Part shown: one piece after another, positions 22,349 through 63,597 of the stretch
How positions within the stretch are numbered: position 1 is the stretch's first letter
Layout of the letters: the number at the start of each line of letters is the position of its first letter
From: Anaerolineae bacterium
GTDB taxonomy: Bacteria; Chloroflexota; Anaerolineae; UBA7937; B3-Chlor
NCBI GenBank assembly: GCA_034411995.1
Contig: DAOUME010000030.1
Span: forward strand, 47,409 to 111,408
Direction of reading: 5' to 3'
DNA length: 64,000 bases
Made by a program: the position numbers and the translations under genes
The notes under the pieces: generated by a model
What the model saw: the letters and a program-made list of their open reading frames with translations, nothing else
Database searches by the model: none
Told to the model about the DNA's origin: nothing

Positions 22349-22363
22349 CCGGCCTCCAAGGTG

Positions 22364-29639: not shown

Positions 29640-29846
29640 GACCTCCCATCTAGGCCAATGGACCCCCTGGAGGAGGCTCCTGCTCACTGATCGGTAAGGG
29701 AGCGACCCCTATGGCCGCGCAGCAAGGAATAGTCGACTCCGGCCCTCCAATTGTGGGGCGTGTGCAGCCAAACTCAGTCCCCGACACAGCGTCCCGCCTT
29801 GAAGGGGCCCTGGTGCCGGTGACGAGGGAGGACAGACTGGTCCCGC

Positions 29847-45171: not shown

Positions 45172-46494
45172 TCACGCCTTCAAGTGGAGCCGGGTCTCGA
45201 GGAAGGCTTCCAGCTCAGCCGTCATCTGCGCATCATCCCACTCCCGCGCATCGACGGTGTCTGCCCGGAGCTCCAACACCGGGATGCCGACGTCCTCGAA
45301 GGTCTTCCTTATGAAGTAGGAGCCCTGGACCGCCTGCGTGCAACTGTTGGAGACCAAATGCACCACGCCGTCGATCCCGCTGTTCCGGGCCTCCTTCAGG
45401 TACCACTCGGTGTTCCAGGGTGGCATGTGCAGCATGTCCTCCATCCCCACGAACCGGCTGGCCAGAGCCCGGAGCGGCTCACCTCCGTACCGAGCATAAG
45501 CATCTGCCGCGAGGGCCAGATAGATCGACCACACGAAAACCGCCCCGTAGCGCTCCTCGAAGTGCTGATAGAAGCCGAGGTTGAACCAGAGGCCGGTCCC
45601 CAGCCACATGAGACGGACGAGCTCGTTCTCGCAGGCAACCAGACCCCGCTGCACCAGGTCCCTCGTCTCTTCGTAGAATCCGCAGGCGGCATCCACCGCC
45701 CACTGCGTGCCACGATGCCACTGGGGGATCATCACGCTGGGCATCTGATCCGTGACAGTGAGGGGCGCCGGTACCGTCTTGGCAATCAGATCGCGCGTCC
45801 GCACGTTGTACTCTTCTTGCTCATTGACCAGTTCCATAACCCGCCGGAATCTGGTCTCGCTGAAAGCCTTCCCGGTGGTAGCCTCCAGGAAGCGGATCAG
45901 TCCCTCCAGCTCTTCTACCATCACGTCCAGGCGGTGCGGCTCGAAGAGTTCCTCCCACTCCCACGCCGTCTTCTCCCACCACCTCTCGGGGACCTCCAGC
46001 GGCACGGTGCTCTCCAGCGGGTAGAACGGTATCCCAAACTCTCGCGACCAGAGCTCGAAGATCTTGGCCTGAGCGTCGCAAGTGAGGCGCGCGACCGCCA
46101 GGGTCGGTCGGGGCAGTCCGCCCCAGGGACCGTTCTCAGGATGAGGATCAAAGGCGGAGGCCAGAGAGAGCGAGCAGTAGCGACAGAGATCCTGGCGATA
46201 GCCCCTCCCGTTCAGAAGGCCCAGGTAGTACGGAGACATCTGCTTGGCCGAGCAGACCGCCGCCCACCACTGGTTGACCACGTAGGGGATGTCCATCGCG
46301 CGGAAGATCTCCTGGGGAACGTCGGCGTTGACGATGGCGAGAGGCTCACCCTCCGATACCCGTTCCCGCGTCCGCGCGAACCACTCTCTCTGGTAGTTGT
46401 TCGCCTCAGTGGCCGAACGTAAGCGCTTGACACTCGCACGACCGCTCCAGTTAGCGTTTCGTGTGTCTGGTGCCGAGTTCGCCCGCTCACTCAT
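45172..46494 (-). CDS. 2-hydroxyacyl-CoA dehydratase / benzoyl-CoA reductase BcrC-BadD-HgdB family protein (subunit 2)
   Basis: Track ORF trimmed to ATG 46494 (ATGAGTGA overlap with the upstream stop). IVNADVPQEIFRAMDIPYV and CRYCSLSL are typical family blocks. Confidence 0.8.
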   Translation of the reverse strand: MSERANSAPDTRNANWSGRASVKRLRSATEANNYQREWFARTRERVSEGEPLAIVNADVPQEIFRAMDIPYVVNQWWAAVCSAKQMSPYYLGLLNGRGYRQDLCRYCSLSLASAFDPHPENGPWGGLPRPTLAVARLTCDAQAKIFELWSREFGIPFYPLESTVPLEVPERWWEKTAWEWEELFEPHRLDVMVEELEGLIRFLEATTGKAFSETRFRRVMELVNEQEEYNVRTRDLIAKTVPAPLTVTDQMPSVMIPQWHRGTQWAVDAACGFYEETRDLVQRGLVACENELVRLMWLGTGLWFNLGFYQHFEERYGAVFVWSIYLALAADAYARYGGEPLRALASRFVGMEDMLHMPPWNTEWYLKEARNSGIDGVVHLVSNSCTQAVQGSYFIRKTFEDVGIPVLELRADTVDAREWDDAQMTAELEAFLETRLHLKA

Positions 46495-47665
46495 GACTCG
46501 ACACCTCACGACCCGCTCCTCGAGCAGGCTGGTCCCCTCCAGCGATGGACTTGACAAAAGCCTCCACCCGGTCGCGCAACTCGTCTGTCTTGACAAGCTT
46601 GTACGGTTGGCGATCGAGGAGCAGCACCGGGATCCCCTCCGACTCCAGCGCCCGCCGCTGCTCGGGGAAGTCCCACGACGGCGCATCGTCGGCATCGTAG
46701 ATGAAAGCGATCACGCCCTGGGCATCGGTGGCGTGCACGCCCTCCAACAACGCAGTGACCCGCTCCGACACCGTGGACTGGTGCGCACCTGGCTGTCGCA
46801 GGTGGTAGCGATCCACGATGCCGTCGATGGGGTCCGGGCTGATGTCGATCTGGCCAGCCGAATGCCTGTCGCCCCAGTCGTGGTCCTCGCCCACCACGAC
46901 CGCTCCGCACGACTCCACCAACTCATAGAACTGCACATGGTCTTGCGCGCTGCCAGTGACGAAGATCCGCACCCCAGAAAGCGGATCGCTCGCCCCAGCC
47001 TCCTCCAAGAACGCGGCCAGGAGACGGCTATGGCCGTGGCGTGGCAAGAACATCGACGCGCCGATGACCTCTAGCGCTTGTACGCCGCTCACGCGCGGAG
47101 GGCCGGGCGCACGCAACCCCGCCAGTTCCCGCAGCAAGCGGCGGTTTTCCTCGAAAACCCCGATAGCCTCGACGACCTCCTCATCGGCGATTTCTCGCCC
47201 ACACCACTGCTCGATCACGGACTTGAGATCGCGCGCGCGTTCGCGGTTGTATAGAGTGCTGGTTCGACGCCGTGTGTGGAGAAGATCGAAGAAGTACAGA
47301 TCGGGGATGGGGAGACTCGACTCGGCCATACGCAACGCGCGCAGGTAGTAGAACATCCGGACCAGCGCATCCGAGGAGCTTGCCACCACGAGGTGGTCCA
47401 GGTACGAATACGACCCATCGATGATCCGCAAGAACTGCGATCTCGCGCGAGGGTCAAAAGCCTGCTCTATGTAGCGATCAGCAACGTGGAGGTCACTTTC
47501 GGGATCGCCGCACACGCGGACCGGCAGTATCCCGGCGGCGAGCAGCAACTCCTCAGGGACATCGCTTCCCAAGCAGCCCGCCACCTGGCCGCCTTGTTCC
47601 TTCCACTCCAGAGCGGCCCGGTCTCTTTGTCGGTAGGCGCGGGCCAGCTCCCGCAAGACGCTCAC
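46487..47665 (-). CDS. 2-hydroxyacyl-CoA dehydratase / benzoyl-CoA reductase BcrC-BadD-HgdB family protein (subunit 1)
   Basis: 392 aa. The WKEQGGQVAGCLGSDVPEELLLAAGILPVRV N-terminus is typical of the family. The GTG start has no SD of its own and overlaps the stop of an 18-codon upstream ORF (GTGA). Confidence 0.8.
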   Translation of the reverse strand: MSVLRELARAYRQRDRAALEWKEQGGQVAGCLGSDVPEELLLAAGILPVRVCGDPESDLHVADRYIEQAFDPRARSQFLRIIDGSYSYLDHLVVASSSDALVRMFYYLRALRMAESSLPIPDLYFFDLLHTRRRTSTLYNRERARDLKSVIEQWCGREIADEEVVEAIGVFEENRRLLRELAGLRAPGPPRVSGVQALEVIGASMFLPRHGHSRLLAAFLEEAGASDPLSGVRIFVTGSAQDHVQFYELVESCGAVVVGEDHDWGDRHSAGQIDISPDPIDGIVDRYHLRQPGAHQSTVSERVTALLEGVHATDAQGVIAFIYDADDAPSWDFPEQRRALESEGIPVLLLDRQPYKLVKTDELRDRVEAFVKSIAGGDQPARGAGREVSSHE

Positions 47666-47931
47666 GGCGTCACCAGCAGCGCCTGGGGAAGAGAATCGGC
47701 GGTTTCCACTTCAGTCATCTGAGTTGTTCCTCTCCTTGCGGGATAGGCTGCCATTTTTAGATGCAGCCCTTGCCCGCCCGTCCCGCCATGGCGCTAGAGC
47801 CTTGGTGGGACGATTACTCTGGGCGGGCACACTGATCCGTGCCACTTCTCACAAGAGATCAAGCTGGCCCGATGCGTCCAGCTCGATCAACCGTTGGGGA
47901 CCACGAGGGGCGCATCCTCGACGAGGCCCGG

Positions 47932-50334
47932 CTAAGCCATCAACTCATGCTGGGTGCGAGCGATGATCTCGTCTTGTACGCTCCTCGTCAGTTGCACGAA
48001 GTAGGCGCTGTAGCCAGCCACTCTGACGATGAGATCACGGTATCTCTCCGGATGCTTCTGGGCATCCACCAGTGTGTCCTGGTCGATGACATTGAACTGC
48101 ACATGCTTTCCCCCGAAGCTGAAGTAGGTTTTGACCAGGGCCGCTAGCTTCCTGAGATCCTCTATGCCCTTCAATGCCGACGGATGGAACTTCATGTTCA
48201 GCAACGTGGCCTGAAACGGGACCTGGTCTATGGCCATGGCACTCCTCAGCACCGCCGTGGGCCCATGAGTGTCGCGGCCCTGTGCCGGCGACATCGTCCC
48301 GTCCGCCAATGTCTCACCGGCGTACCTGCCGTCGGGCGTCGCTCCTGTCAACGCTCCGCCGGGTGCGTGTGCGGTGATAGAGATACCAGTCGGCTTCGTC
48401 GTACCCCCCCAGATGGTGGGAAATGTCACCGCGGTGTCAGCCCAGAACTGGTAGAGTTCTGCAGCTATGGAGTCCACATACGGGTCACCGTTACCGTACT
48501 TAGGCGCAGCCAGACACACCTTCCGGATCTCTGCGTGCCCGTCCCCGTGCCAGTTGGCCTTGAGCGCGGCTGCCAGTTGCGCCTTGCTGACTCGCCCCTC
48601 GTCGAAGACCAGTTTCTTCATCGCCGCCAGAGAGTCAGCCACGTTTACCATCCCCACAACGTTCAGGGCAGAGCCATTCTCGAAGGGCAGCGTGCGGTCC
48701 AGGGCATCCCGGCCCACCTTGATCGCATCCATCATGAGGGCAGAATGCACGGCGTCGGGGAAGAGCTCCCTCTGCGCCTGCAGGAGGGTGTTGTGCTCCT
48801 CCGCAGCCAATCCCATGAAATGCGCAAGCTGTTCCTTGAAGGCGTTCATGAACTCATCGAAGGTCTCGAGGGACTCGAATTCTCCCGTCCGGGGCCCGAG
48901 TTGCCTCCCCGTCCGCGGCTCGACCCCGTTGTTGATGGTGATCTCCAAGACCAGCGGGGCGATGAACATCCCGAAGGCGTTGATGCGTGACCTGCCCGGG
49001 ATGTTGACGTCGAGGCATCCCGCCAGAGCGTAGTCTCGTGCTTCTCGAAGGGGGACACCCTGGCTGACCAGATATTCGATGTACGACTTGTCCCCGACGA
49101 AGGCGGGCATGCCGATCCCTGTCTTGACTACCTCCAGAGCTTTCACCATCAACGCTTCGGGCGTGCCCTCGTGGACCCTGACGGTTATGGTGTGATGAGG
49201 AGTCTGACAGTCCCGTGCCGCTTCTAGAATGAGGTACGACAGTTCGTTGGTGGCATCTTCGCCATCCGGGGTCACACCGCCGATAACCCAGTTGTGCCAC
49301 CTCGCCATCCCCGCCCACTTCTGCCTCTGGAGCTTCCCACCTCCCACGAAGTTCAACTGCATGACCTTGATGCGGAGACATTCCAGCAACTCCAGTACTT
49401 CCTCGTCGGTGATCACCCCTCGTTCCTGGTCCCGCCTGTAAAAGGGGTACATGAACTGGTCGAATCTGCCGCCCGGAGTGGTCCCGCTGGCGATCATCAC
49501 CCAGATGAACCAGAAAGACTGGACGGCCTCACGGAAGGTCCGAGCCGGGTTACCAGGCACCCATCGACAGGTCTCCGCTATCCTTTCCAGTTCCCTCTTT
49601 CGCACCGGATCCTCTTCAGAGGTAGCCATCTCCGCCGCCAGGTTGGCGAAACGCTCAGCGATGCGCAGGATGGCTTCGTAGGCTATGATCACCGACTTGA
49701 GGAAATCCGCCTTTTTCACGGCATCGGCATCCGTGAACCTCAGGCTCCTGAGCTCTTCTTCCGCTTCTGCCACTATGGCGTTCAGCCCTTCGTTCAGCAC
49801 CTTGGCATAGTCCACTACGATCAGACTCAAGCCCAGGCCCAGGCCCCATCCCACGCCGGCAGCTCCGGTCCCGCGCCCTTCCACTTTGTCTTTCCACGGC
49901 GGGCAAAGGATTCCAGACTGAATAAAAGGCCACAGTCTCTCGTCATCGTAGAACTGCCCCTGTCTCTCGTCCAGAGTCCTGCCCTGGCCCTTCCAGTAGT
50001 CGTCCATCGACCTGAGCAGGGCTTCGTCCTCCCGGGAGATGTCGAGGCCCGCCTCTCTCAACTCCTCCATGTCGTCTTCGGGCCATGTGGGGCCCAGAGA
50101 TCCAGCCTCCAGCCCCATCGGCTTGCTGGCGATGTTGCCAACGATGAGTTCATCATCTTCAATGAATATCGTCTTGTTCTCCAGGTAGTGTGCGGTGGCT
50201 TTCGCTCTCCTCACGATCTGCGGCAAGCCTTCCGTCTGTCTGTACGACTCCATGACCAGACGCACCTTCTCCACACAGATCGGGTACCTCTCCGGCTGAA
50301 GCCTTTCTCTCAACCGCTGTGCACGCTCGTTCAT
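47932..50334 (-). CDS. Glycyl-radical enzyme, PFL2/glycerol-dehydratase clade, unassigned specificity
   Basis: Glycyl motif RVAGYSAYFV near the C-terminus. Thiyl loop AGCLDV (nt 49020-49009). N-terminus ERAQRLRERL...CVEKVRL. Start set to ATG 50334, 52 nt after the activase stop; the track start is 50394. Confidence 0.9.
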   Translation of the reverse strand: MNERAQRLRERLQPERYPICVEKVRLVMESYRQTEGLPQIVRRAKATAHYLENKTIFIEDDELIVGNIASKPMGLEAGSLGPTWPEDDMEELREAGLDISREDEALLRSMDDYWKGQGRTLDERQGQFYDDERLWPFIQSGILCPPWKDKVEGRGTGAAGVGWGLGLGLSLIVVDYAKVLNEGLNAIVAEAEEELRSLRFTDADAVKKADFLKSVIIAYEAILRIAERFANLAAEMATSEEDPVRKRELERIAETCRWVPGNPARTFREAVQSFWFIWVMIASGTTPGGRFDQFMYPFYRRDQERGVITDEEVLELLECLRIKVMQLNFVGGGKLQRQKWAGMARWHNWVIGGVTPDGEDATNELSYLILEAARDCQTPHHTITVRVHEGTPEALMVKALEVVKTGIGMPAFVGDKSYIEYLVSQGVPLREARDYALAGCLDVNIPGRSRINAFGMFIAPLVLEITINNGVEPRTGRQLGPRTGEFESLETFDEFMNAFKEQLAHFMGLAAEEHNTLLQAQRELFPDAVHSALMMDAIKVGRDALDRTLPFENGSALNVVGMVNVADSLAAMKKLVFDEGRVSKAQLAAALKANWHGDGHAEIRKVCLAAPKYGNGDPYVDSIAAELYQFWADTAVTFPTIWGGTTKPTGISITAHAPGGALTGATPDGRYAGETLADGTMSPAQGRDTHGPTAVLRSAMAIDQVPFQATLLNMKFHPSALKGIEDLRKLAALVKTYFSFGGKHVQFNVIDQDTLVDAQKHPERYRDLIVRVAGYSAYFVQLTRSVQDEIIARTQHELMA

Positions 50335-50386
50335 GTCTATTCCCCACCTCGACCCGTAGTCCGGGGACCAGAACGGTGCTCGCGGC

Positions 50387-51322
50387 TCACCCACCCAAAT
50401 GGACGATCAAGCCGAAGGATTCGAAAACCTCCCCTATTTCCTCCATGTGTTCTTCGCTGGGTGGCTGGGCGGCAATGGACTTGCCAGGCTGCTCCATTCT
50501 GTCGTGCTTGGCCTCGCCGAGCCTGTGATAGGGAAGCAAGTGAACCTCGACTGAATCTCCGAGCTGAGTGGCTACGAATCGACCCGTCGCCGCGAGATTC
50601 TCGACCGTATCATTGTAGCCCGGAATCACCGGTACCCGCGCAAGCATCGGGATGCTCAGTTCACGATGGATTCGCTCTGCGTTCTCCAAGATCAGCTCGT
50701 TGGATACTCCGGTGTATCTCTGATGTTGCTCCGGGTCCATGTGTTTGAAGTCGTACAGTACGAGGTCGACGTGCTCCAGCACCTGCCGCACAGTCTGCCA
50801 AGGCGCGTATCCACAGGTGTCCAGGGTGGTGTGTATGCCGCTTTCTCTGCAGAGCCTGAACACCGCCGCGGTGAATTCGGGTTGGGCCAACGGCTCGCCA
50901 CCGCTCAACGTTGCGCCACCTCCCGATCTCTGGTAGAAGATGTCATCCGCCGCGACCTCATCGAACACCTCTCCGGCAGTGATCTGTCGTCCCATGAGGC
51001 TTCTGGCCTCGTTGGGACAGACCTCCGCACATTTGCCGGCACCTCTGCACCGGTCGCGGTCGGTGCGCGAACGCTCCCCCACGACCTCGATGGCTCCTTC
51101 GGGACAAGCGCGCACACACGCTCCGCATCCTGTGCAGTTCTCGGCCACGAAGAAGACCTCCGGTCGCGCGGTCTGCGATTCCGGATTCTGGCACCAGAGA
51201 CAGTGCAGAGGACATCCCTTGAGGAACACCGTGGTCCGGATCCCTGGACCGTCGTGTATAGAATAACGTTGCACGTTGAAGATCACACCTGGCGTGTCTC
51301 GTGCATCAGTCAGTCCCATCAA
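50387..51322 (-). CDS. Glycyl-radical-enzyme activating protein (radical SAM, with two auxiliary ferredoxin-like clusters)
   Basis: CPLHCLWC (C-x3-C-x2-C), CTGCGACVRACP, CRGAGKCAEVCP and GGGATLSGGEP. Confidence 0.9.
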   Translation of the reverse strand: MMGLTDARDTPGVIFNVQRYSIHDGPGIRTTVFLKGCPLHCLWCQNPESQTARPEVFFVAENCTGCGACVRACPEGAIEVVGERSRTDRDRCRGAGKCAEVCPNEARSLMGRQITAGEVFDEVAADDIFYQRSGGGATLSGGEPLAQPEFTAAVFRLCRESGIHTTLDTCGYAPWQTVRQVLEHVDLVLYDFKHMDPEQHQRYTGVSNELILENAERIHRELSIPMLARVPVIPGYNDTVENLAATGRFVATQLGDSVEVHLLPYHRLGEAKHDRMEQPGKSIAAQPPSEEHMEEIGEVFESFGLIVHLGG

Positions 51323-51362
51323 CGTTCCCGCTCTTCGTCTCCACGATCCGGCTCAGATGGAG

Positions 51363-52916
51363 CTAATGAATCCTCCGCTCCTCATCTCTCCAGTACTCTT
51401 CCCTTATTTCCGCCTTCTTGATCTTGCCACTGCCTGTCTTGGGCAACGCTTGCCTGAACTCCACTGATCTGGGCTTCTTGTAGCTGGCCAGATGTGCCTT
51501 GCAGAAGTCGATGAGCTCTTCTTCGGAAGCTTCCACCCCGTCTTTGAGCACCACGACCGCCTTCACAGACTCGCCCCACTTCTTGTCCGGCACCCCCACC
51601 ACCGCAGCCTCAAGCACTGCGGGGTGCATGTACAGGACGTCCTCTACCTCCCGAGAGTAGATGTTCTCTCCCCCGCTGATGATCATATCCTTCTTTCTGT
51701 CTACCAGGTAGACGTAGCCATCCTCATCCAGCCTACCCACGTCCCCCGTGTGCAGCCAGCCGTCCTCTTCTATTGTTTCGGCCGTCTGCTGAGGCATTCC
51801 CCAGTACCCTGTCATCATTCTGTCACTGCGCGCGAGTATCTCTCCCACACCTCCGGGCGGAACGTCGCGGCCCTGGTCGTCCACGATTCTCATCTCGCCC
51901 TGCCCAAAAGGCCGGCCTGCCGACTGCAATCTCTGGAGCTCCCTCGGTGAACCCTCCAGTTTGTGGTCCTCTTTCTTCAGCACTGCTATGTTCAAGCTCT
52001 CGGTCTGCCCGAACAACTGGCTGAAAACCTGGCCAAACCGCTCGAGGCCTCTCCTCAACGCCTCTGGAGGCATGGGCGCCCCTACGTACATGATGGTGCG
52101 CAAGCTGCTGAGGTCGTAGTCACCCAGGTGGGGATGCTCCAACAGCCGCATGATCATGGCCGGTACCAGACCCACGTAGGTCACCTTCTGCTTCGCTATC
52201 GCCTCGAGGACATCGGTCTCATTGAAGCCCTTATGGATCACGCTCGTAGCGCCGTAGGCGAAAGCAGGGAACAGGTGGGCCGCAGAGCCGCCGACGTGGA
52301 AGAAAGGCATCACACACAGGACGACGTCGTCGGGGGCAAAACTGCCTTGGTGAACCCCGATCTCCGCCAGCAGGCTCTTGTGCGTGTGAGTGGCACCCTT
52401 GGGATGTCCCGTCGTGCCGCTCGTATAGTAGAGAGCGGCTGGGTCATTCGGAGTCACTTCGTCCGACGGCTCGTCTGAGGGATAACCGGCGATCAACTCC
52501 TCGTAGCTGATCATGCGCTCCACATCTGCATCGAGACAGATCAGGTTCCTGATCGTGCCCAGCTCGTGCCGGATGGGGCTGACCACGTCCACGAACCCGC
52601 GCCCCACGATCAGAGTGTTGATCCCGGAGTTGTCTATCAGATAGGCAAGCTCCCTGCCCACGGACCTGTGGTTCAGCGGCACGCACACTCTGCCCGCTTT
52701 GGCCAAACCGAAGACCTCGAAATACTGCGGACAATTGTAGGCCAGTATCCCTACGCGGTCTCCTTTGCCAACACCGTGGTCCGCTAGGGCGTTCACCAGG
52801 CTGTTGATCCTCCGATTCACCTCATCGAAGGTATAGCTTCTGTCCTCGCCGACAAGGGCGATCTTATCGCCATATCTCTGAGCGTTGGCATTGATCATCT
52901 CTTTGAGAGTCTGCAT
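51363..52916 (-). CDS. ANL-superfamily acyl-CoA synthetase (AMP-forming)
   Basis: 517 aa. YTSGTTGHPKG, MTGYW, DGYVYLVDRKKDMIISGGENIY and the C-terminal GKIKK. Confidence 0.9.
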   Translation of the reverse strand: MQTLKEMINANAQRYGDKIALVGEDRSYTFDEVNRRINSLVNALADHGVGKGDRVGILAYNCPQYFEVFGLAKAGRVCVPLNHRSVGRELAYLIDNSGINTLIVGRGFVDVVSPIRHELGTIRNLICLDADVERMISYEELIAGYPSDEPSDEVTPNDPAALYYTSGTTGHPKGATHTHKSLLAEIGVHQGSFAPDDVVLCVMPFFHVGGSAAHLFPAFAYGATSVIHKGFNETDVLEAIAKQKVTYVGLVPAMIMRLLEHPHLGDYDLSSLRTIMYVGAPMPPEALRRGLERFGQVFSQLFGQTESLNIAVLKKEDHKLEGSPRELQRLQSAGRPFGQGEMRIVDDQGRDVPPGGVGEILARSDRMMTGYWGMPQQTAETIEEDGWLHTGDVGRLDEDGYVYLVDRKKDMIISGGENIYSREVEDVLYMHPAVLEAAVVGVPDKKWGESVKAVVVLKDGVEASEEELIDFCKAHLASYKKPRSVEFRQALPKTGSGKIKKAEIREEYWRDEERRIH

Positions 52917-53385
52917 TTCGTCCCCTCCAGCGGAACAGAGCTCCTCCCAGATCCATCGTGGAGCCGTTACAACCGCCTGCCGGTCGGCGATGAACCGAGC
53001 TTGCTGACCGCGTCGCTCGCCCTTTGCTCACGCGCCGGGCGAAAGCCGCAAGCGCTACGTCATCAACAGTGCCGGCATCGGGATGCACAGGTGCACCGTC
53101 GTGAACACCCTCGAAATCCGGAACATGGGCCATGGACCCGTTGGCGAGAGCCGCCATGAGGGCGGGTACCTTGGCCCTAGAGTCCAGGATCGAACTCTCC
53201 TGGGCGCCGGCTTCGGCCATCGCCAGGTCGACAAAGGCGCGACATCCCTCGCCAGGCGTGCTCGCGGCCAGGGTTACGCCTAGCGCCTCCAAGGAGCTTC
53301 TCTTGGCAGCATCCACAAGGTTATCGGGTATGTCATCGTAGCCGACGTCAGCTACGTTCTGGGCCAGGACCAACAATGCGTTCAT
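52864..53385 (-). pseudogene. MmgE/PrpD-family N-terminal fragment (truncated remnant)
   Basis: ATG 53385 overlaps the upstream ABC stop (ATGA). LAQNVADVGYDDIPDNLVDAAKRSSLEALGVTLAAS...ALANGSMAHVPDFEGVH...VHP matches only about the first 115-135 aa of ~450-aa PrpD-type proteins. The frame then decays into Arg/Ser-rich sequence and runs into the acyl-CoA ligase start. Confidence 0.6.
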
Positions 53386-54353
53386 TGCCGGAGATGATGC
53401 CAGCATTTGACCTGGTGGTCGTCATCGAGCACCGACAGGGGAGGCTCATCTTGTATGCACTGGTCATCTGATCGTGTACAGCGAGGAGCGAACCTACACC
53501 CGGTGGGCAGCCGGTCAAGCCGAGGGGGCTGCCCCGCAATAGAAACCAGTCTGTCTATCTTGGTCTCCAGCTTGGGCACGGCCTTCAACAACGAAGCCGT
53601 GTAGTGATGGGCCGGCCTGTAGAAGATCTCCGTCACGGGCGCGCTCTCTACGATCTGGCCTGCGTACATCACCGACACGCGATCACACATATTGGCCACG
53701 ATACCGAAATCATGAGTGATGAAGATGAGCGACATGCCCAATTCGCGCTGCAGGTCCCTCAGAAGCTCCAGATACTGGGCCTGGATGGTCACATCAAGGG
53801 AAGTCGTCGGCTCGTCGGCTATGAGCAAGCGAGGACGGCAGGATATGGATATGGCGCCCACGACCCTCTGCTTCATGCCACCGCTCATCTGGTGCGGATA
53901 GGCGGTGATCCTCGTCTCGGGGGATGGGATATTGACCTGTCTCAGCATCTCAACCACCCTGTCCACAAGGGCGGCCCCCTTGAGCTTCAGATGAGTGGAT
54001 AGCGATTCCGCTATTTGGTCGCCCACCGTGAACACAGGGTTCAGGGAGGTCATGGGATCCTGAAGAATCATGGAGATCTTCTCGCCGCGGACCTTCCGCA
54101 TCTCTCTGTCACTCTTACGCAAGAGATCCTCGCCCTCAAACAGAATCTTGCCGCTGACGATGCGACCAGGTCTCGGCACGAGCCTCAAGATCGACAGGCA
54201 CGACATGGTCTTGCCGCACCCTGACTCTCCGACCAGGCCCAGGGTCTCGTTATCATCGACGTGAAAGCTCACCCCGTCCACGGCCTTGACGACCGTGTTC
54301 TTCCTCACGAAGTAAGTCTTGAGATCCTGCACCGCCAGCATCCTGGTTCCCAT
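53382..54353 (-). CDS. Oligopeptide/dipeptide-type ABC transporter ATP-binding protein (OppD/DppD-like)
   Basis: GESGCGKTMSCLS, MSGGMKQRVVGAISI, LLIADEPTTSLD, GCRFAPRC. Confidence 0.9.
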   Translation of the reverse strand: MGTRMLAVQDLKTYFVRKNTVVKAVDGVSFHVDDNETLGLVGESGCGKTMSCLSILRLVPRPGRIVSGKILFEGEDLLRKSDREMRKVRGEKISMILQDPMTSLNPVFTVGDQIAESLSTHLKLKGAALVDRVVEMLRQVNIPSPETRITAYPHQMSGGMKQRVVGAISISCRPRLLIADEPTTSLDVTIQAQYLELLRDLQRELGMSLIFITHDFGIVANMCDRVSVMYAGQIVESAPVTEIFYRPAHHYTASLLKAVPKLETKIDRLVSIAGQPPRLDRLPTGCRFAPRCTRSDDQCIQDEPPLSVLDDDHQVKCWHHLRQ

Positions 54354-54555
54354 CTCAGTGCTTCACCCCTCTCGGCCAGACACTCTCCGGAGCCATCTAG
54401 AGGATCCTGTCCTCCGTCCAAGGGTAGCCGACTCTCACAGCGCAAGTCGCCTGTAGGTCCCGCCCCTCATCCCGGTTATCGATCCCGTCGTCACATCCAT
54501 GCCTACGCACCCCACCACTATCGTGCTGAAAGGAGCTGCGCCCATGGTCGTCTCA

Positions 54556-55527
54556 TCATCGGTCGTAGTGCAGACAGGCCACGGAATGCCCCAATGCCAC
54601 CTCTCTCAGAGTGGGCTCATTCTCAGAGCACCGTTCCTGGGCTCCTGGGCACCGGGGGTGGAAACAGCAGCCGCTGGGGGGATCGATGGGGCTGGGCACC
54701 TCACCAGGGAGGACACTCTTGGCGTGCTCCGCATCGGGTCTATCGGGCAGGCTGGCCGCGAAGAGCGCTCTGGTGTAGGGATGCAACGGCTCCGTACACA
54801 GGTCATCGCCCGGCGCACTCTCCACTATCTTGCCCAGATACATCACACTGATCCTGTGACTCATGTACCTTACGGTCGCCAGATCGTGAGCGATAAACAG
54901 GAAACCGAGATCCCTCTGCTTCTGCAGATCCTTGAGCAGGTTGAGTAGCTGAGCGCGAATGGAGACATCCTGGGAAGACACCGGCTCATCAAGGATGATC
55001 AGCCTGGGATCACAGGCCAGGGCTCGGGCAATGGCTATCCTCTGCCTCTGCCCTCCACTGAACTCGGCCGGGTATTGCCTCACGGCGCCGGCGTCCAGTC
55101 CCACCGCCTCCAGCGCGGCAAGAACCCTCTCTCTAGTCTCCCCCCTGTCGCAAGTCCTGTTCGCCACCAGCGGTTCTGCTACGATGCCGCCCACCTGCAT
55201 CCTGGGATTGAGAGAGGAGAAAGGGTTCTGGAAGACTACTTGCACCGATCTCCGGTAGCGGGCCAGATCTTCCCCGTTGAACTCAGTCACGTCCTGCCCG
55301 TCGAACAGGATGCGGCCCTCGGTCAGGCTCTCCAGCAACAAGATGAGCCTGGCTATGGTCGTCTTGCCGCAGCCGGACTCACCCACCAGCCCCAAGGTCT
55401 CGCCCGGCTCGATGGAAAGATCGACACCATCGACCGCTTTCACCCAGGCCACGGTCCTGGAGAACAATAGTCCCTTGATGACCGGAAAGTGCTTCTGTAT
55501 CTCTATCGTTTGCAATACTGGTGGCAT
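54556..55527 (-). CDS. Oligopeptide/dipeptide-type ABC transporter ATP-binding protein (OppF/DppF-like)
   Basis: GESGCGKTT, FSGGQRQRIAIARAL, IILDEPVSSQD, GCCFHPRCPGAQERC. Confidence 0.9.
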   Translation of the reverse strand: MPPVLQTIEIQKHFPVIKGLLFSRTVAWVKAVDGVDLSIEPGETLGLVGESGCGKTTIARLILLLESLTEGRILFDGQDVTEFNGEDLARYRRSVQVVFQNPFSSLNPRMQVGGIVAEPLVANRTCDRGETRERVLAALEAVGLDAGAVRQYPAEFSGGQRQRIAIARALACDPRLIILDEPVSSQDVSIRAQLLNLLKDLQKQRDLGFLFIAHDLATVRYMSHRISVMYLGKIVESAPGDDLCTEPLHPYTRALFAASLPDRPDAEHAKSVLPGEVPSPIDPPSGCCFHPRCPGAQERCSENEPTLREVALGHSVACLHYDR

Positions 55528-55716
55528 CCCTATGACCCTGCTTCCAGACTACCCCTGCAGGCTTCCTGTGCATATCGAGATGCCCATGGCCGCAGCCTGG
55601 GATCTGCCTGCAGTAAGGCAACTTCTCTGCTCGGATTAGCCACCCGACGCGCGCACGGCTTGCTGGCCGTTGCGGGAACGGCTCCGTGCTTGATCTGGCT
55701 CTTGGCTCCCTACACA

Positions 55717-56556
55717 TCATGCCTGGAGAGCCGGATTCAGTATCTCGGTGAGCGTGTCTCCCAGAAGGTTAAAGGAAAGCACCGTGGCCACAATGGCTAC
55801 CCCGGGGACCACCGATAGCCACCATGCGGTCACCACGTAGGACCGGCCTTCGGCGATCATGGAGCCCCAGTCCGGCGTGGGGGGAGGCACGCCCACCCCC
55901 AGGAAACTCAAGGAAGACTCCATGATGATCACGATACCGACCTGCAGGGTGGCCAGAACGATCAGCGAACTGGCCACGTTGGGCAGGATGTGTCGCATCA
56001 TGATCTTAGTCTTAGACACCCCCGCAACCTGAGCCAGGGCCACAAAGTCCATTTCCCTGACTTTCAATGTCTCCCCCCTGGCCATGCGCGCGTACTCCGC
56101 CCACAGCACCAGGCTGATCACGAAGATGATGTTAAAGAAGCTTGGCCCAACCACCACCGCAAGCACCATGGCTAGCAGAATCGCGGGGAACGAGAAGGCC
56201 AGGTCCACCGCCCGCATGATGACTATGTTCAGCCAACCACCAAGGTAACCTGCCACTGCGCCCAGCAAGGATCCCGCGACGCCCGAGACGAGGATGGCCA
56301 GCACAGCCACGGCCAACGAGGTCCTGGCTCCGTAGACTAGCCTGCTGAGAGTGTCCCTGCCGAGCAAGTCGGTTCCCAGCAAATGGGCGCTGCTGCCTCC
56401 CTCCTGCCAGGCAGGCGGTGTCAGGCGGTCGCTCAAAGCACCCTTCGTTGGGTCATAGGGCGCGACGAATGGAGCAAACACCGCCACAAGCACCAACAGG
56501 CCGATGATCACCAGCCCTATGATGCTCATCACCATGGAGGATAGACCAATCCTCAT
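55717..56556 (-). CDS. ABC transporter permease (OppC/DppC-like)
   Basis: 279 aa, multi-pass membrane protein. EAA-type loop VALAQVAGVSKTKIMMRHILPN. Confidence 0.9.
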   Translation of the reverse strand: MRIGLSSMVMSIIGLVIIGLLVLVAVFAPFVAPYDPTKGALSDRLTPPAWQEGGSSAHLLGTDLLGRDTLSRLVYGARTSLAVAVLAILVSGVAGSLLGAVAGYLGGWLNIVIMRAVDLAFSFPAILLAMVLAVVVGPSFFNIIFVISLVLWAEYARMARGETLKVREMDFVALAQVAGVSKTKIMMRHILPNVASSLIVLATLQVGIVIIMESSLSFLGVGVPPPTPDWGSMIAEGRSYVVTAWWLSVVPGVAIVATVLSFNLLGDTLTEILNPALQA

Positions 56557-56656
56557 CTAGCCACCCCTGCTGACACTGACTCAAGCAGCCCATCGAGGCA
56601 GACATCCTGTGGTCGTGCAGGATGAACTGCTGGCCCAACCCCCGAACCACCAGGCG

Positions 56657-57577
56657 CTAGGAATACCTAATGCGCGGGTCAATATAAGCATAGAGGACAT
56701 CGACCACCAGATTGATCACCAGGAACACCGTGGCCATAAACAGGACCACCGCTTGAAGCACAGGATAGTCGCGGACCATCACCGAGTCGAACGCGAGACG
56801 CCCGACCCCCGGCCAGGCGAAGACCGTTTCCACGACCACGGTTCCGGTCACCATACGTCCAAAGACCGTGCCCAGGTACGTGATAACGGGGATCAGGCTG
56901 TTTCGCAAAGCATGCTTCCAGATTACCGTCGTCTCTGACAGTCCCTTTATCCGGGCCAGCTTCACATACTCGCTGTCGAGAGCCTCCAGCATTCCAGCGC
57001 GCGTCAGACGCAGGAAGGCGGCGACCATGAAGGCGCTCAAGGCAAACACAGGAAGGACGAACTGTTCTGGCCTTCCATATCCCGATGTCGGCAGCCAACC
57101 CAACTGTACGCCGAAAACGTACATGGCCACGATGCCCAGCCAAAAGACAGGAGTCGCCTGCCCGAGCAGGGCCAAGACTCGGGAAATCGTGTCCACAAAC
57201 GACCCCTTTTTCACGGCCGCCAACACCCCTAGCGGCAGTCCGATGAGGATACTGACCGTGACGGATATCGAGGCCAGTTGCACGGTGGCCGGAAGCCTTT
57301 CCAGAACCAGCTCGAGGGCGGGAGCTCGCTCGCCTCTGATCGATCTGCCCAGGTCCCCTCTGACTGCATTCCACACGAATATCGCATATTGCTCCACCAG
57401 GGGCTTGTCCAAGCCCAACTGGCGAGTGAGCATCTGCTGATCCTCCTCTGTGCTGAACTCGCTCAGCAGCAGAGCCACCGGGTCGCCAGTCAGTCTTCCC
57501 AGAATGAAGACGATTATGCTAACCAAGAACAGCGTTACCAGGCCCTGCATCAGGCGCCTGACAATGTATCGTTGCAT
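56657..57577 (-). CDS. ABC transporter permease (OppB/DppB-like)
   Basis: 306 aa. N-terminus IVRRLMQGLVTLFLVSIIVFILGRL and EAA loop YVKLARIKGLSETTVIWKHALRNS. Confidence 0.9.
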   Translation of the reverse strand: MQRYIVRRLMQGLVTLFLVSIIVFILGRLTGDPVALLLSEFSTEEDQQMLTRQLGLDKPLVEQYAIFVWNAVRGDLGRSIRGERAPALELVLERLPATVQLASISVTVSILIGLPLGVLAAVKKGSFVDTISRVLALLGQATPVFWLGIVAMYVFGVQLGWLPTSGYGRPEQFVLPVFALSAFMVAAFLRLTRAGMLEALDSEYVKLARIKGLSETTVIWKHALRNSLIPVITYLGTVFGRMVTGTVVVETVFAWPGVGRLAFDSVMVRDYPVLQAVVLFMATVFLVINLVVDVLYAYIDPRIRYS

Positions 57578-57882
57578 ACCTGTCCCGCTTTAGCTCACGC
57601 CCGTTGGCCCGTTGCGCATCCGTTCGCTGGCGCTGCCTCGCCCGACCCTCGGCCAGGCAACGACTCCCGCCGCCAGGTTTCTCCGGCACCTAGGGACTAT
57701 AGCAGATCGATGGAGAGCGGACTACTCCGGCAGAGGCTCTGCGCCTATTTGTGCCACCAAGGCCAGACCTCCGAGGCCTCCCGAGGCTCAAACCAGCCAG
57801 CGCCATGTGTCTACGGCTCATTCGCCGGCCGAGACCTCGGAGGTCCCACCCCGCGCACAGACTTCGACTTGCTGGTACGAAG

Positions 57883-59538
57883 CTACGGTCGAGTTATCAA
57901 CTCGATGTTGAACGGCCTCATACGTATGGTCGGCCAATTCCCAATCTGGTCGCTAGCACCGTAAGGCTCGTTGGCATACACGAGGAAAACTCCAGCCGCG
58001 TCATCATGAAGCAGTTGGCCGAACTCCCGGGCTAGTTCTTCTCTCTTCCCAGCATCGAGCTCGGTCAGCATTTGATTCAGCAAAGCCGCGCTTTCCTCTG
58101 TCGCATAAGATGTGAACTTGCCCTGGGGGTCATAGAAGATAGTCGCTGGTGTCAACGCTTCAGCGAAGGGCTGGCCTCTCTGAGTAAAGAGATAGTCGTT
58201 TGCCTGACCGGCCAGCAACTCATCTCTCACAGAACCCCAGTCCGTGGGCACTATGGTGACATCGATCCCGATCTCCTGCCAGTACATGGCCACAGCCTCG
58301 CCGATGGTGGGAAGCTCGGCCCCCGGATTCATGGTGAGGGTCTTCAGGCTGAGCGGAAAGCCATCAGGGTAGCCAGCCTCCGCTAGCAGCTGTTTCGCCA
58401 CATCTGGATCGTAAGGATAGGGTTCTATGTCGATCCACCCAGGAACAGGGTTGGAGGAACCTGCTGGTATCGCTTCACCGTGGAATATGGTCTCAGCGAT
58501 GGCTTCCCTGTCCACCGCGTAATTGAGGGCCTGGCGAACCCTCGTGTCTGCCCACGGCTGATCCGCGACGTAGCGTTCAGACTGGCTCTCGACGACCCCG
58601 CCAAACCAGATCAGTGGCACCCAGCTTCCAGGGATAGAAACCACACTGAGTCCCGCCCCGGTGACCGCTTCCACAGAGTCATAGGAGATAGGGGCCAGAT
58701 CCACCTCGCCCGCCAGCAGCATCGCTACCCTGGTTGCTTCCTCCGGCACGAGCAGGAAGGTAACAGTCTCAAACTCGGGTGTTACCCGCCAGTGGTTCTC
58801 GATACCCTCGATCGTCTTCAACACGATCGGCCCTGCTGCCTGATGCTCCTCCGCGAGAGTGTAGGGACCGGTCCCGATCGGGTGGGAGTTTGCCTCTTCG
58901 TCACCCACGGATTCCACATACTTCTTGCATACGATCATCCCTCCAGCGTTGTAGTCCATCAGTAGGCTGGGGACAAGCACAGCGTATGGCTTTTGGAGGT
59001 GAAGAACGACCGTATAAGGGTCTGAGACCTCGATGGTGTCGATCAGTGCCCGTAGCTGCCCCGCCGGGCTGCCAATCGAGTCCTCACCGATCATCCTTTC
59101 CCAGCTATACTTGACATCCTCGCCGGTCATTTCGCCCCAGCCCTCATGGAACTGAACACCCTGGCGTAGATGGAAGGTGTACGTCATCCCATCCGGTGAC
59201 ATCTCCCAACTCGTGGCCAGCCCGGGTTGAGGCTCCGCCGTCTCTGGATCCGCGTACGCCAGGAACTCGTAGATCAGACCCAGATATGTCTGGCGTGCCA
59301 CGCCCCCGTTCCAGGGCAAGAAGGTGTCCTCCGCAAAGGAAGACAGGGCCACAGTCAAGCTGCCCGTCGGTCCTGCTGGAGTTGGAGTGGAAACTGGAGT
59401 TGGCGGTGCGGTAGGGGCTGCAGTAGGAGGCACAGTGGGGGCTGCAGTGGGGACAGGCGTTCCACAGGCACCCAGCAGCATTACACCCACGAGCATCGCC
59501 GCCAGCAAGGTGAACCTAAGCGACTTGACCTCTCTCAT
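57883..59538 (-). CDS. ABC transporter substrate-binding lipoprotein, family 5
   Basis: Track ORF 57883..59625 trimmed to ATG 59538 (GGAGGGAG upstream). Signal peptide with lipobox LLGAC, a Pro/Thr/Ala linker, and the family-5 block PGLATSWE. Confidence 0.9.
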   Translation of the reverse strand: MREVKSLRFTLLAAMLVGVMLLGACGTPVPTAAPTVPPTAAPTAPPTPVSTPTPAGPTGSLTVALSSFAEDTFLPWNGGVARQTYLGLIYEFLAYADPETAEPQPGLATSWEMSPDGMTYTFHLRQGVQFHEGWGEMTGEDVKYSWERMIGEDSIGSPAGQLRALIDTIEVSDPYTVVLHLQKPYAVLVPSLLMDYNAGGMIVCKKYVESVGDEEANSHPIGTGPYTLAEEHQAAGPIVLKTIEGIENHWRVTPEFETVTFLLVPEEATRVAMLLAGEVDLAPISYDSVEAVTGAGLSVVSIPGSWVPLIWFGGVVESQSERYVADQPWADTRVRQALNYAVDREAIAETIFHGEAIPAGSSNPVPGWIDIEPYPYDPDVAKQLLAEAGYPDGFPLSLKTLTMNPGAELPTIGEAVAMYWQEIGIDVTIVPTDWGSVRDELLAGQANDYLFTQRGQPFAEALTPATIFYDPQGKFTSYATEESAALLNQMLTELDAGKREELAREFGQLLHDDAAGVFLVYANEPYGASDQIGNWPTIRMRPFNIELITRP

Positions 59539-59809
59539 TTCTCCCTCCTCTTCTCTGTGTAGATTTGGCCTTGCCGACCCTAAGCTTTTCATCTCTTCCT
59601 CCCTTTCTCCGTGTTGATTCCACATCGCCTGTTAGAGTTTTGTCATCTCTCCCTCCCGATCTTCCGATCCTCGTCTAATGCGAATCCACTTCCGTGATGT
59701 AGTTGACAGGGAGCCCCCGCAACTGTCTGTTCGTCCCTCCACACGCGTGCCCAGCGGCCTGTCACAGAAAGGTGTTGCGCACTGAGCACCGCTGACTACC
59801 AGACTTCAC

Positions 59810-62300: not shown

Positions 62301-63545
62301 TCAGTACACTCCATACTCTCTGGTGGCATCCACCCACACCTTGACCAGCTCCGGGTCCGCCTCGGCCATGGATGAACTGGAGCCCATGACGAAACCGCCA
62401 CCTTTGCCTACGACCTCGATCAGTTCCCTGGTCAGAGCCCGAATCTGCTCTGGAGTTCCGCCTCGAAGCAACGACACCGGGAACCCGGCCATGATGCACA
62501 TGGTATCGCCCAGCACGTCCTTCACCTTGAACAGATCGCTGCGGTCGAACCGACCGATGGTCTTGCCCCTCGGCAATTCGCGCAGATACTGAAGGCGCTG
62601 GTCGTAGCTGCCCTCGTAAAAGACATGAGGAGTGACCCCGCCATCGATCAGGCCCAACAACATGGCTTTCAAGGATGGCCAGTAGAAGGTCTCGAACTGC
62701 TCCAGGGACATGAACCCGTCGGAGCCACGATGGAGAGCGACGAAGCAATAGAGACTCCCACTCGCCTTCGTAACAGCCACCGTGTGGTTCACGAGTATCG
62801 GCAGCACCTTCTCCTGCGCGGCCAAGAGCTTGTCCGGACAACGATACATGTCCAGCATGATGCCCCGCATACCCCTCAGGGTATCGGACAAGAAGTCGAA
62901 GGGAGCGGTGAGATAAGCGCCACTTCTCAGCGACATGGGAAACCCCAGGGCCTCCATCCTCTGCGCGGCGACCTTCCTGGCAGCCCTGGTCCGCACCATC
63001 TCCTTGCTCGTCTCCAGGAGCGCCTCCAATGAGGCCATGACGCTAGGCTCGTCCAGCACTCTGACGTTGGGCAGCGCGGGGTAGCCCATCAGCATGATGG
63101 GCAAACGCGGCAGCTCTGCAAAGCCCTCCAGGGCAGAATAGGCCCGCGGCAAGAAGGTACGTAAGGTGAAGTCAGTGGGATCGTCCAGGAAGGCATCGTA
63201 TTCCTCTGCCTTGAGGTACTCCCCTTCGACGAACTGGAAGGTCCCGTTGGGGCCCAAGCCGTAGCCCGGCCACTTCGTCTGCCTGTCGCCCAGCAGCACG
63301 CTGGGCAGTGGCGAGAATGTCGCCCCTCGGGCTATGTCGGGCTCGAAGTACAGCGCGTACTTTTCCAGGAGCGCCTGAGCCTTGTCATGGTCGCGCTCCA
63401 ATTCCTCGTAAGTGATCCCGCCCAGGCGAGCCAGCATGTATCCAAAGTTGAGATCGATGGGCACGCGATCCGGCACCCTCAGCTCGTAGGCATCCTTAAC
63501 ACGCTTGGTTCGCTCGGCCAGCAACTCTTCAGGCGTCTTGGGCAT
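62301..63545 (-). CDS. Uroporphyrinogen-decarboxylase (URO-D) family protein (MtaA/CmuA-like fold, function unknown)
   Basis: The APFDFLSDTLRGMRGIMLDMY and HVFYEGSYD..LQYL blocks resemble the URO-D/methyltransferase TIM-barrel family. The start is ambiguous (ATG 63545, 63584 or 63611). I chose 63545 because MPKTPEELLAERTKRV looks like a family N-terminus and it avoids overlap with the MFS gene. Confidence 0.55.
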   Translation of the reverse strand: MPKTPEELLAERTKRVKDAYELRVPDRVPIDLNFGYMLARLGGITYEELERDHDKAQALLEKYALYFEPDIARGATFSPLPSVLLGDRQTKWPGYGLGPNGTFQFVEGEYLKAEEYDAFLDDPTDFTLRTFLPRAYSALEGFAELPRLPIMLMGYPALPNVRVLDEPSVMASLEALLETSKEMVRTRAARKVAAQRMEALGFPMSLRSGAYLTAPFDFLSDTLRGMRGIMLDMYRCPDKLLAAQEKVLPILVNHTVAVTKASGSLYCFVALHRGSDGFMSLEQFETFYWPSLKAMLLGLIDGGVTPHVFYEGSYDQRLQYLRELPRGKTIGRFDRSDLFKVKDVLGDTMCIMAGFPVSLLRGGTPEQIRALTRELIEVVGKGGGFVMGSSSSMAEADPELVKVWVDATREYGVY

Positions 63546-63597
63546 CCGCCTGCCTTCTTCTGCTCTCCTGGCGAACCGACGCATAGCCTCTACTGGC

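Follow-up and report, generated by a model that had tools for sequence, protein, structure and literature searches.

What chemistry does a glycyl radical enzyme (GRE) carry out when the residue two places after its catalytic cysteine is an aspartate? The question is raised by a stretch of 64,000 nucleotides from an Anaerolineae bacterium (contig DAOUME010000030.1; the whole stretch is here called the window), in which an 800-residue GRE, GRE1, is encoded on the minus strand (47932..50334) downstream of its own activase and an ANL-family acyl-CoA ligase. In place of the C-x-E motif of GRE 1,2-eliminases and isomerases, GRE1 carries C-L-D, a conservative replacement. We find that this loop marks a large and widespread clade, in which the aspartate most likely does the same acid/base job as the glutamate, and we tentatively favour an eliminase- or isomerase-type reaction.

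By its Pfam domains, PFL-like (PF02901, E=7e-168) and Gly_radical (PF01228, E=9e-33), GRE1 belongs to the GRE superfamily (PFL-like, non-RNR). The mechanically called open reading frame (ORF) spans 47932-50394 and opens with a GTG at 50394. We take the ATG at 50334 as the likely start, because 120 homologues are about 800 residues long. Nucleotides 49026-49006 translate to LAGCLDV, in which the thiyl (Cys) loop G439-C440-L441-D442 occupies 49009..49020 on the minus strand. The glycine radical motif RVxG[FWY] is present as RVAGYSAYFV (47995..48024, minus strand; Gly774) and is kept in homologues. A first-pass annotation, made from the letters alone, had described GRE1 as a PFL2-type enzyme with this glycyl motif and a loop A-G-C-L-D-V at 49020-49009. 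The translation reproduces the loop exactly, and Pfam and the PDB alignment agree on motif and type. In a phmmer search of all solved structures, the best match was glycerol dehydratase (GDH; 1r8w, E=2e-155). The GCLD of GRE1 aligns column for column with the GCVE of GDH (Cys433/Glu435), so that Cys440 falls on Cys433 and Asp442 on Glu435, and Cys440 is invariant in 108 family sequences. As judged from its sequence, GRE1 is a functional-looking glycyl radical enzyme with Gly774 and Cys440 in the canonical radical positions. It reaches none of the NCBIfam equivalog cut-offs tested (CutC, HypD, HpsG/HpfG, IAD, HPAD and PFL), scoring 571.8 against 1000 bits for HpsG and 517.9 against 1050 for CutC, and it also stays under the generic PFL2-3 subfamily model TIGR01774 (598.8 vs 678.2 bits). 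An identity as PFL was rejected, given the single Cys in place of a C-C pair and a PFL match of E=8e-35.

The activase gene (50387..51322, minus strand) ends 52 bp upstream of GRE1 and encodes the sole activase in the window. Its domains (Pfam Radical_SAM and Fer4), its score against TIGR02494 (358.8 bits, cut-off 174) and a CX3CX2C motif indicate that it is of the GRE-activating type. It had been described as carrying two auxiliary clusters. Its ferredoxin-like insert reads CX2CX2CX3C-X18-CX5CX3C, with 4+3 (seven) cysteines and not 4+4. The seven-Cys insert is common to 17 family activases, including this one, and other family activases have the canonical eight.

Is a C-x-D loop known among characterised GREs? 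A PDB search with a 70-residue loop segment ought to bring out any C-x-D enzyme of solved structure. The reading rests on the five matches with printed alignments, namely AAD, with G-C-V-L, and GDH, the propanediol dehydratase 9RCO, HpyG and HplG, all with C-x-E. A review from the Drennan laboratory (June 2026) states that C-x-E is retained by all six C-O-cleaving eliminases and three isomerases, and names the Glu for CutC, IslA/IseG and HpsG (PMC13450708). Among decarboxylases, Gln484 is essential in phenylacetate decarboxylase (PAD; PMC13450708), and HPAD and IAD carry Glu at Cys+2 (PMC13450708; PDB loop match). No solved, reviewed or NCBIfam-modelled GRE with C-x-D was found, which upholds the first-pass annotation on this point. 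Its companion claim, that the characterised PFL2-type enzymes carry C-x-E, went too far, as AAD (7E7L, G-C-V-L) and PAD (Gln484) illustrate. Entire GRE clades are without validation according to the same review (PMC13450708). The Cys+2 position in uncharacterised 50%-cluster representatives is E, D, Y, P, G, L, N, M, H, Q, S or T, and GRE1 homologues in cultured and gut bacteria bear generic names only. Literature searches for links of GREs with CoA ligases, 2-hydroxyacyl-CoA dehydratases, PrpD, CapA, MslH or Chloroflexota returned nothing relevant. An apparent 'MmgE' match in PMC8163825 was rejected, since the word was 'mmgenome', and a limonene GRE was set aside as an ordinary X-succinate synthase. 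The GRE1 clade thus appears experimentally uncharacterised.

The loop itself is no chance event or sequencing quirk, because it is carried by 120 of the 120 closest GRE1 homologues (G-C-[LI]-D; 71-100% identity, all about 800 residues) and by nearly all members of the loci described below. The sources of these homologues include Anaerolineae, Dehalococcoidia, Deltaproteobacteria/Desulfobacterota, Spirochaetes, Dethiobacter and Moorellales. A locus search with a single protein yielded just two family loci together with HpyG-like genes, and an alignment-based scan was therefore required. With one genome per species it gave 80 loci, and contigs added by exact protein look-up brought the set to 83 non-redundant loci with about 110 family GREs, nearly all G-C-[LIVM]-D. 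At 50% identity the clade comprises at least 15 clusters. Among the closest full-length cluster representatives (42-51% identity), an exhaustive search found C-x-D in most, at least 12. In one search that scored 8,000 candidates, 2,635 were GRE1 matches at E <1e-50, with the loop checked in part of them. Members of the clade occur in Chloroflexota, Desulfobacterota and Acidobacteriota and also, at 54-62% identity, in gut and rumen Firmicutes (Blautia, Oscillospiraceae, Intestinimonas and Faecalibacterium metagenome-assembled genomes). Cultured hosts include Geosporobacter ferrireducens IRF9 and the Clostridium sp. strains OM02-18AC, MCC353 and chh4-2. Many family loci hold two to three C-x-D paralogues. 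The loop signature of the clade is G-C-[LIVM]-D-x-N.

Neighbour-joining places the C-x-D sequences together in a single, monophyletic block, with HpyG-like G-C-V-E-T-N-L dehydratases among the nearest outgroups. Nested inside this block are members with Glu at Cys+2: G-C-L-E occurs in three Dehalococcoidia loci (L043, L045, L046) and in L047, and G-C-I-E in P0121. In the three Dehalococcoidia loci the gene with Glu forms a divergent pair with a paralogue that has Asp, and it adjoins genes for PrpD, CapA, ANL and HGD proteins, BcrAD ATPases, a thiolase and a zinc-ribbon protein. Asp and Glu have thus been interchangeable over evolution, so that a conserved acid/base carboxylate, with no new catalytic device, is the simplest reading. 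The oddity of the Asp loop had accordingly been overstated: as the family alignment suggests, Asp at Cys+2 most likely does the same acid/base job as Glu.

Three observations, namely the Asp/Glu interchange, the universal and essential Glu of the eliminase and isomerase class, and the position of dehydratases as nearest relatives, lead us to infer that enzymes of the GRE1 clade act as eliminases or isomerases on an organic acid that the cell imports. We hold this as our leading but tentative interpretation. In this model, the thiyl radical of Cys440 would abstract a hydrogen from a heteroatom-bearing carbon of the substrate. Asp442 would serve as the acid/base partner of that heteroatom and deprotonate it, as the Glu does in C-x-E enzymes, and the neighbouring bond would then be cleaved. 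The substrate would probably be imported and used as the free organic acid, not as a CoA ester, and have a non-polar part.

The non-polar part is suggested by the putative pocket, whose positions were read off the phmmer alignment to GDH, that is, from sequence alignment alone. The list of positions follows the GDH, CutC and HypD structures (with GDH numbering after the 1R9D literature) and serves as a lead, not as a test. Between GDH and GRE1, Asn156 maps to Trp163, His164 to Leu171, Ser282 to Thr285, Tyr339 to Trp346, Asp447 to Ala453, Phe450/Phe451 to Met456/Phe457 and Tyr640 to Ile651. By this homology mapping the pocket would be lined by Trp163, Leu171, Thr285, Trp346, Ala453, Met456/Phe457 and Ile651/Ile653. 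Trp346, Thr285, Asp442, Met456, the Ile651-Ser-Ile-Thr strand and Arg450 are near-constant across subclades, and the position of GDH His164 is an invariant Leu in the family. Positions 163, 443, 453 and 457 vary between paralogues. The pattern suggests that the substrates of the clade are related to each other and share a non-polar part. A glycerol or propanediol dehydratase was rejected for GRE1, because the general acid His164 and the polar diol residues are replaced in the mapped pocket. The substrate-binding residues of CutC (Asp216/Thr502/Tyr506) and the Arg/Gln/Arg triad of IslA were not found at the mapped GRE1 positions, the explicit mapping being to GDH only. By alignment, the GRE1 pocket would also be unlike that of either choline lyase or hydroxyproline dehydratase.

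Which proteins accompany these enzymes? Neighbours within 10 kb of family GREs were grouped into clusters across the 83 loci, and the cluster identities were checked by Pfam. An activase is present in 47 loci, followed by an MmgE/PrpD-family protein (24), a PucR-type regulator (23), a PGA_cap/CapA-like protein (20) and a MatC/CitMHS carrier (19). Less frequent are HGD-D proteins (13), SBP_bac_5 ABC importers and ANL ligases (12 each), URO-D-like proteins (11), TRAP carriers (10), CoA-transferase III (7), acyl-CoA dehydrogenase (6), and electron-transfer flavoprotein (ETF), CoA-transferase I and TTT carriers (5 each). Because importers of four families flank the GREs, a free small solute is a likelier substrate than a CoA ester. 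A PDB search with the SBP5 and TRAP binding proteins returned generic relatives only (DppA, 4N6D) and gave no ligand clue.

With 55-76% identity between Anaerolineae and Desulfobacterota, Acidobacteriota and Moorellales, the partners of the PrpD-like and CapA-like kinds are true orthologues. Among solved structures, the PrpD-like protein comes closest to B. subtilis IRG1, iminodisuccinate epimerase and cis-aconitate decarboxylase, and the CapA-like protein to MslH, a lasso-peptide C-terminal epimerase. Both proteins would act ahead of the GRE or after it, in steps of the isomerase, epimerase or decarboxylase type. Both are absent from 54 of the 83 family loci.

Two further neighbourhood patterns were seen among the loci. 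Ten Firmicutes loci from gut, rumen and other sources (L051, L053, L054, L063, L065, L066, L069, L074, L087 and L091) hold two to three C-x-D paralogues, each typically with a divergent PucR-type regulator and a MatC/CitMHS carrier; some add CoA-transferase, ANL, acyl-CoA dehydrogenase and ETF genes, and DUF4037/DUF4125 proteins recur nearby. In several Dehalococcoidia and Acidobacteriota loci, a Peptidase_S15 (cocaine-esterase family) or carboxylesterase gene lies directly beside GRE1-type genes (L011, L025, JGI contig CCL8CH-A, L031, L037, L042 and L044). These esterase-type neighbours hint that the GRE substrate is perhaps freed from an ester or amide.

The window itself departs from this picture. 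It is collinear with its closest relative, locus L001 (GRE 91% identical), except for two gaps in the window. The first has removed about 1.03 kb of the PrpD-like gene: window 53068..53005 corresponds to L001 6235..7331, where the intact gene spans 5882-7291. What is left is an MmgE/PrpD-family remnant of 180 codons (52864..53406, minus strand; Pfam MmgE_PrpD_N, partial), of which only the first about 120 residues are homologous (tblastn covers residues 17-119). In the second gap, window 47931..47914 corresponds to L001 12404..13717, which holds the CapA-like gene (12533-13666). An intergenic scar (47666..47931) between the GRE and HGD genes marks the place where relatives carry it. No other PrpD or CapA homologue was found within the window, which is a trimmed version of the family's usual locus, minus its two most conserved partners. 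That two clean deletions should hit exactly these genes, with the PrpD remnant overlapping the ligase start, could point to a decaying locus whose pathway is dead although the GRE ORFs are intact. We consider this very unlikely: the genes for GRE1, a second GRE (GRE2), activase, ligase, the two HGD proteins and the transporter are full length with intact motifs, the majority of family loci do without PrpD and CapA, and copies could sit beyond the window on the 141-kb source contig.

Several further points weigh against eliminase- or isomerase-type chemistry. The loss of PrpD and CapA may mean that the pathway is impaired in this organism. The PrpD/IRG1- and URO-D-family partners hint at decarboxylation over elimination. 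With the general acid of the diol dehydratases, His164, replaced by Leu, the apolar aromatic pocket fits a decarboxylase equally. The pocket residues rest on alignment, and the geometry of Asp442 is putative. AlphaFold2, run on a 16-sequence alignment that held homologues of at least 71% identity only, gave a mean pLDDT of 62.5, with the Cys loop, the Gly loop and residues 119-173 and 652-693 below 50. The core of this model is unreliable. Foldseek did not discriminate (all PFL2-type GREs came out about equal, with TM ~0.6 and a root-mean-square deviation of 10-11 Å), and neither Asp442 nor an alternative Glu was placed.

The main rival is a radical decarboxylase, which would take CO2 off a carboxylate bearing an aryl or alkyl group, such as a substituted di- or tricarboxylate. 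Here, Asp442 would return a proton to the Cys thiolate, the role proposed for Glu505 of HPAD, and the ANL ligase would activate the resulting monocarboxylate. In line with this, the ligase is of the monocarboxylate fatty-acyl/feruloyl type, di- and tricarboxylate carriers (MatC/CitMHS, TRAP, TTT) adjoin the GREs, and the NCBIfam model for indoleacetate decarboxylase (IAD) scores GRE1 about level with the CutC and HypD models. In the PDB, AAD (7E7L) ranks first against the loop segment and fifth overall, and two partners come from decarboxylase-containing families (PrpD, like IRG1/cis-aconitate decarboxylase, and URO-D). The PrpD family also has epimerases, however, and iminodisuccinate epimerase scores about as IRG1 does. 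Overall, GRE1 is more similar to dehydratases than to decarboxylases, a small subunit of the HPAD type is missing, and Cys+2, which varies in characterised decarboxylases (E, Q or L), is strictly an acid in the C-x-D clade. Decarboxylation is a serious possibility, though one that we rate as rather unlikely.

The two most conserved partners have never been tied to a GRE in the searchable literature, which poses the question whether the clade catalyses a reaction type that is new for GREs, such as a rearrangement or C-C cleavage or formation on aliphatic polycarboxylates or N-substituted amino diacids. Obligatory PrpD-like and MslH-like proteins would then provide the right stereoisomer. The nearest solved relatives of these partners (iminodisuccinate epimerase, IRG1 and MslH) are consistent with this idea, as are the differences of the paralogues in loci with two to three copies at positions 163, 443, 453 and 457. 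Some loci also carry CoA-transferase III, acyl-CoA dehydrogenase with ETF, and thiolase with a zinc-ribbon protein, a set that resembles the beta-oxidation module acting after X-succinate synthases. Against this stand the purely contextual basis of the argument and the many family loci that consist of a GRE, an activase and a transporter only. The carboxylate kept at Cys+2 and its Asp/Glu interchange point to the known acid/base mechanism, and of the PFL2-type enzymes the X-succinate synthases are the least similar to GRE1, with small subunits lacking. We therefore regard a new reaction type of this kind as distinctly doubtful. The broader proposition, that the C-x-D clade is a new functional class working with a PrpD-family protein and an MslH-like metallo-epimerase on a radical transformation undescribed for GREs, seems to us unlikely, if worth keeping in view. 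Candidate reactions may be decarboxylation, rearrangement, or C-C or C-N cleavage of aliphatic or N-substituted polycarboxylic acids.

What, then, is the role of the ligase? The first-pass annotation had correctly placed an activase and an adjacent ANL ligase upstream of GRE1 on the same strand (Pfam, NCBIfam) and had treated the ligase as an unusual partner, implying that the GRE acts on a CoA thioester made next door. The gene (51363..52916, minus strand) encodes an adenylate-forming acyl-CoA ligase of the fatty-acyl/feruloyl-CoA synthetase type (Pfam AMP-binding and AMP-binding_C; PRK06187, 530.7 against a cut-off of 476), with the P-loop motif and the catalytic Lys present in its translation (YTSGTTGHPKG and GSGKIKK) and 8weu/8wev as nearest PDB entries (E=1e-90). 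Ligase, activase and GRE lie on one strand, 40 and 52 bp apart, and PFL shows that a GRE can use CoA. The order is kept, however, only in the two closest Anaerolineae relatives, L001 and L002, whose ligases are 88% and 79% identical. Further orthologues are confined to three Dehalococcoidia loci (~45%), and other locus ANLs are ~30% identical to the window ANL. True orthologues are thus restricted to Chloroflexota, any ANL occurs in 12 of the 83 loci, and an Anaerolineae contig (L040/L048) has PrpD-activase-GRE without a ligase. No CoA-activating gene (ligase or CoA-transferase) lies within 10 kb in 64 of the 83 loci, and 19 have one. Because the orthologues are confined to Chloroflexota and most loci have no CoA-activating gene, the ligase/activase/GRE order appears lineage-specific, and the ligase is, on this comparison, a lineage-specific add-on that does not define the family. 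Enzymes linked to CoA in one way or another recur in 24 of the 83 loci, which would suit a CoA ester as substrate, but they come from several unrelated families (the ligases and transferases alone from three), which fits variable downstream handling of an acid product. The transporters beside the GREs likewise point to a small free solute. We consider a CoA thioester substrate highly improbable.

Eliminase- or isomerase-type chemistry thus remains our preferred reading, and in the Anaerolineae lineage it would be extended by a downstream module. Here, the ANL ligase and a two-subunit HGD/BzdNO-type Fe-S enzyme would have been added to carry the acid product into CoA-dependent metabolism, and the PrpD-like and CapA-like genes would since have been deleted in this window.

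The genes of this module belong to an unbroken string on the minus strand, from 63611 to 45172, which comprises a URO-D-like gene, GRE2, an ABC importer, the PrpD remnant, the ANL ligase, the activase, GRE1 and two HGD-D genes. The unit of ligase, activase and GRE1 described earlier is real but runs on into the HGD-D genes, which had gone unmentioned along with GRE2 and the PrpD/CapA partners. The same-strand gaps are 40 bp (ligase-activase), 52 bp (activase-GRE1) and 266 bp (GRE1-HGD, the deletion scar). The 40-52 bp gaps are too short for a BSS/HPAD-type small subunit and no small ORF lies between the genes, as had been noted. Likewise, neither shell-protein genes nor a BcrAD-activator domain were found among the annotated window ORFs (ORFs <110 aa were not scanned systematically). 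On the absence of shell genes among these annotated ORFs, a microcompartment-associated GRE was rejected. A promoter and terminator scan gave fewer matches than shuffled controls and says nothing on operon structure.

The first HGD-D gene (46487..47665, minus strand; Pfam HGD-D E=6e-50) encodes a 2-hydroxyacyl-CoA dehydratase/BzdN-like subunit with weak NCBIfam BzdN/HadC matches. The second (45172..46695, minus strand; HGD-D E=7e-52; probable true start near 46494) is BzdO/MbdO/HadB-like, with 9g87, 8s02 and 3o3m as nearest PDB entries. Upstream of the PrpD remnant lies a Dpp/Opp-type ABC importer (53382..59625, minus strand), composed of an SBP_bac_5 binding protein (57883-59625; nearest solved protein DppA), permeases (56657-57577 and 55717-56556) and ATPases (54556-55527 and 53382-54353). 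Pfam was applied to the binding protein only, and the permease and ATPase roles come from the translations. The importer gene order is syntenic in L001 and L002. GRE2 (59810..62209, minus strand), 9.4 kb upstream of GRE1, is a paralogous 799-residue C-x-D GRE with the loop TGCLDVNI and without its own activase, assigned by translation, Pfam and NCBIfam. It is 66% identical to GRE1 and 64% to the L001 GRE1 orthologue. GRE2 is preceded by a gene for a divergent URO-D-like protein (62301..63611, minus strand; Pfam URO-D E=6e-14). Its pairing with a GRE recurs in L024, L027, L048 and L084, and a URO-D-like gene lies near GRE1-type genes in L010 and L014.

Further from GRE1, at 14-21 kb, are three paralogous aldehyde:ferredoxin oxidoreductase (AOR) genes (26496-28400, 30340-32268 and 32484-34439, minus strand), accompanied by two genes for ferredoxin-like proteins (28411-28902 and 29847-30350), one for an FMN-reductase-like protein (28899-29687) and one for a GntR/FCD regulator (34557-35231). 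The products of the clustered AOR genes could perhaps handle aldehydes. Together with an aldehyde dehydrogenase gene found in the same-strand run as the GRE in L010, the AOR genes would fit an aldehyde- or ketone-forming eliminase. A LarA-like gene (43383-44687, plus strand; with 460 bits above the 400-bit cut-off of the NCBIfam model 'nickel pincer cofactor-dependent isomerase, group 22') is convergent with the HGD genes, the 3' ends lying face to face. The window also holds split glycine dehydrogenase (GcvP-like) subunits (15363-18370, minus strand), a second complete SBP_bac_5 ABC importer (19444-25122, minus strand) and M19 (2296-3369) and S9 (36238-38421) peptidase genes, which together suggest a peptide- and amino-acid-scavenging lifestyle.

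GREs catalyse some of the hardest anaerobic reactions, and the medical or environmental importance of CutC, HypD, IslA and HPAD emerged once their substrates were known. The C-x-D clade is large and phylogenetically broad, reaching from human-gut and rumen Firmicutes to subsurface Chloroflexota. New here are its size and distribution, the multi-paralogue gut loci and a partner set not previously associated with GREs. It was already known that uncharacterised GRE clades are numerous; the Asp is probably a functional stand-in for Glu, and the ligase link is local. The lead is worthwhile, if less exotic than the first-pass annotation proposed. With the signature G-C-[LIVM]-D-x-N, the partners (PrpD-like and CapA/MslH-like proteins, carboxylate importers and PucR) and cultured hosts in hand, the substrate question becomes testable. 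Since the window holds a trimmed system, it is not the best starting point for experiments. Should the clade be a new functional class after all, it would represent an unseen anaerobic catabolic route common in gut, rumen, sediment and groundwater bacteria.

How does GRE1 compare with known systems? The X-succinate synthases (BSS, MASS) share CoA-transferase III, acyl-CoA dehydrogenase plus ETF, and thiolase modules with some family loci. They are nonetheless the weakest PFL2-type matches (E=1e-89 to 1e-95), and GRE1 comes without beta, gamma or delta subunits; on these grounds an X-succinate synthase was rejected. Among the decarboxylases, AAD (7E7L) resembles GRE1 in its loop segment, the absence of a small subunit and an apolar pocket, but has Leu at Cys+2 and ~33% overall identity. 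The others differ at this position as well (Gln484 in PAD, Glu in HPAD and IAD), and HPAD needs a small subunit. CutC, HypD and IslA/IseG (E=1e-125 to 1e-146) share the PFL2-type fold and an acid at Cys+2 with GRE1, but that acid is the Glu of C-x-E. The HpyG-like dehydratases, a near outgroup at ~35% identity, have Glu for Asp and other gene contexts, whereas the Asn at Cys+4 is shared (G-C-V-E-T-N-L against G-C-L-D-V-N-I/L). The best sequence matches are GDH of C. butyricum (1R8W/1R9D) and propanediol dehydratase (5I2G, 9RCO), with E=2e-155, 4e-145 and 7e-138 and ~33-37% identity. They are also the best fold matches to GRE1, although the model is poor and all PFL2-type enzymes score about equally. 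They differ from GRE1 in their C-V-E loop (C-L-D in GRE1), in polar pocket residues that GRE1 replaces and in a microcompartment context that GRE1 lacks. In common with GRE1 they have a single-Cys loop, the Gly motif, a length of ~800 residues, an activase with a ferredoxin insert and an architecture free of small subunits.

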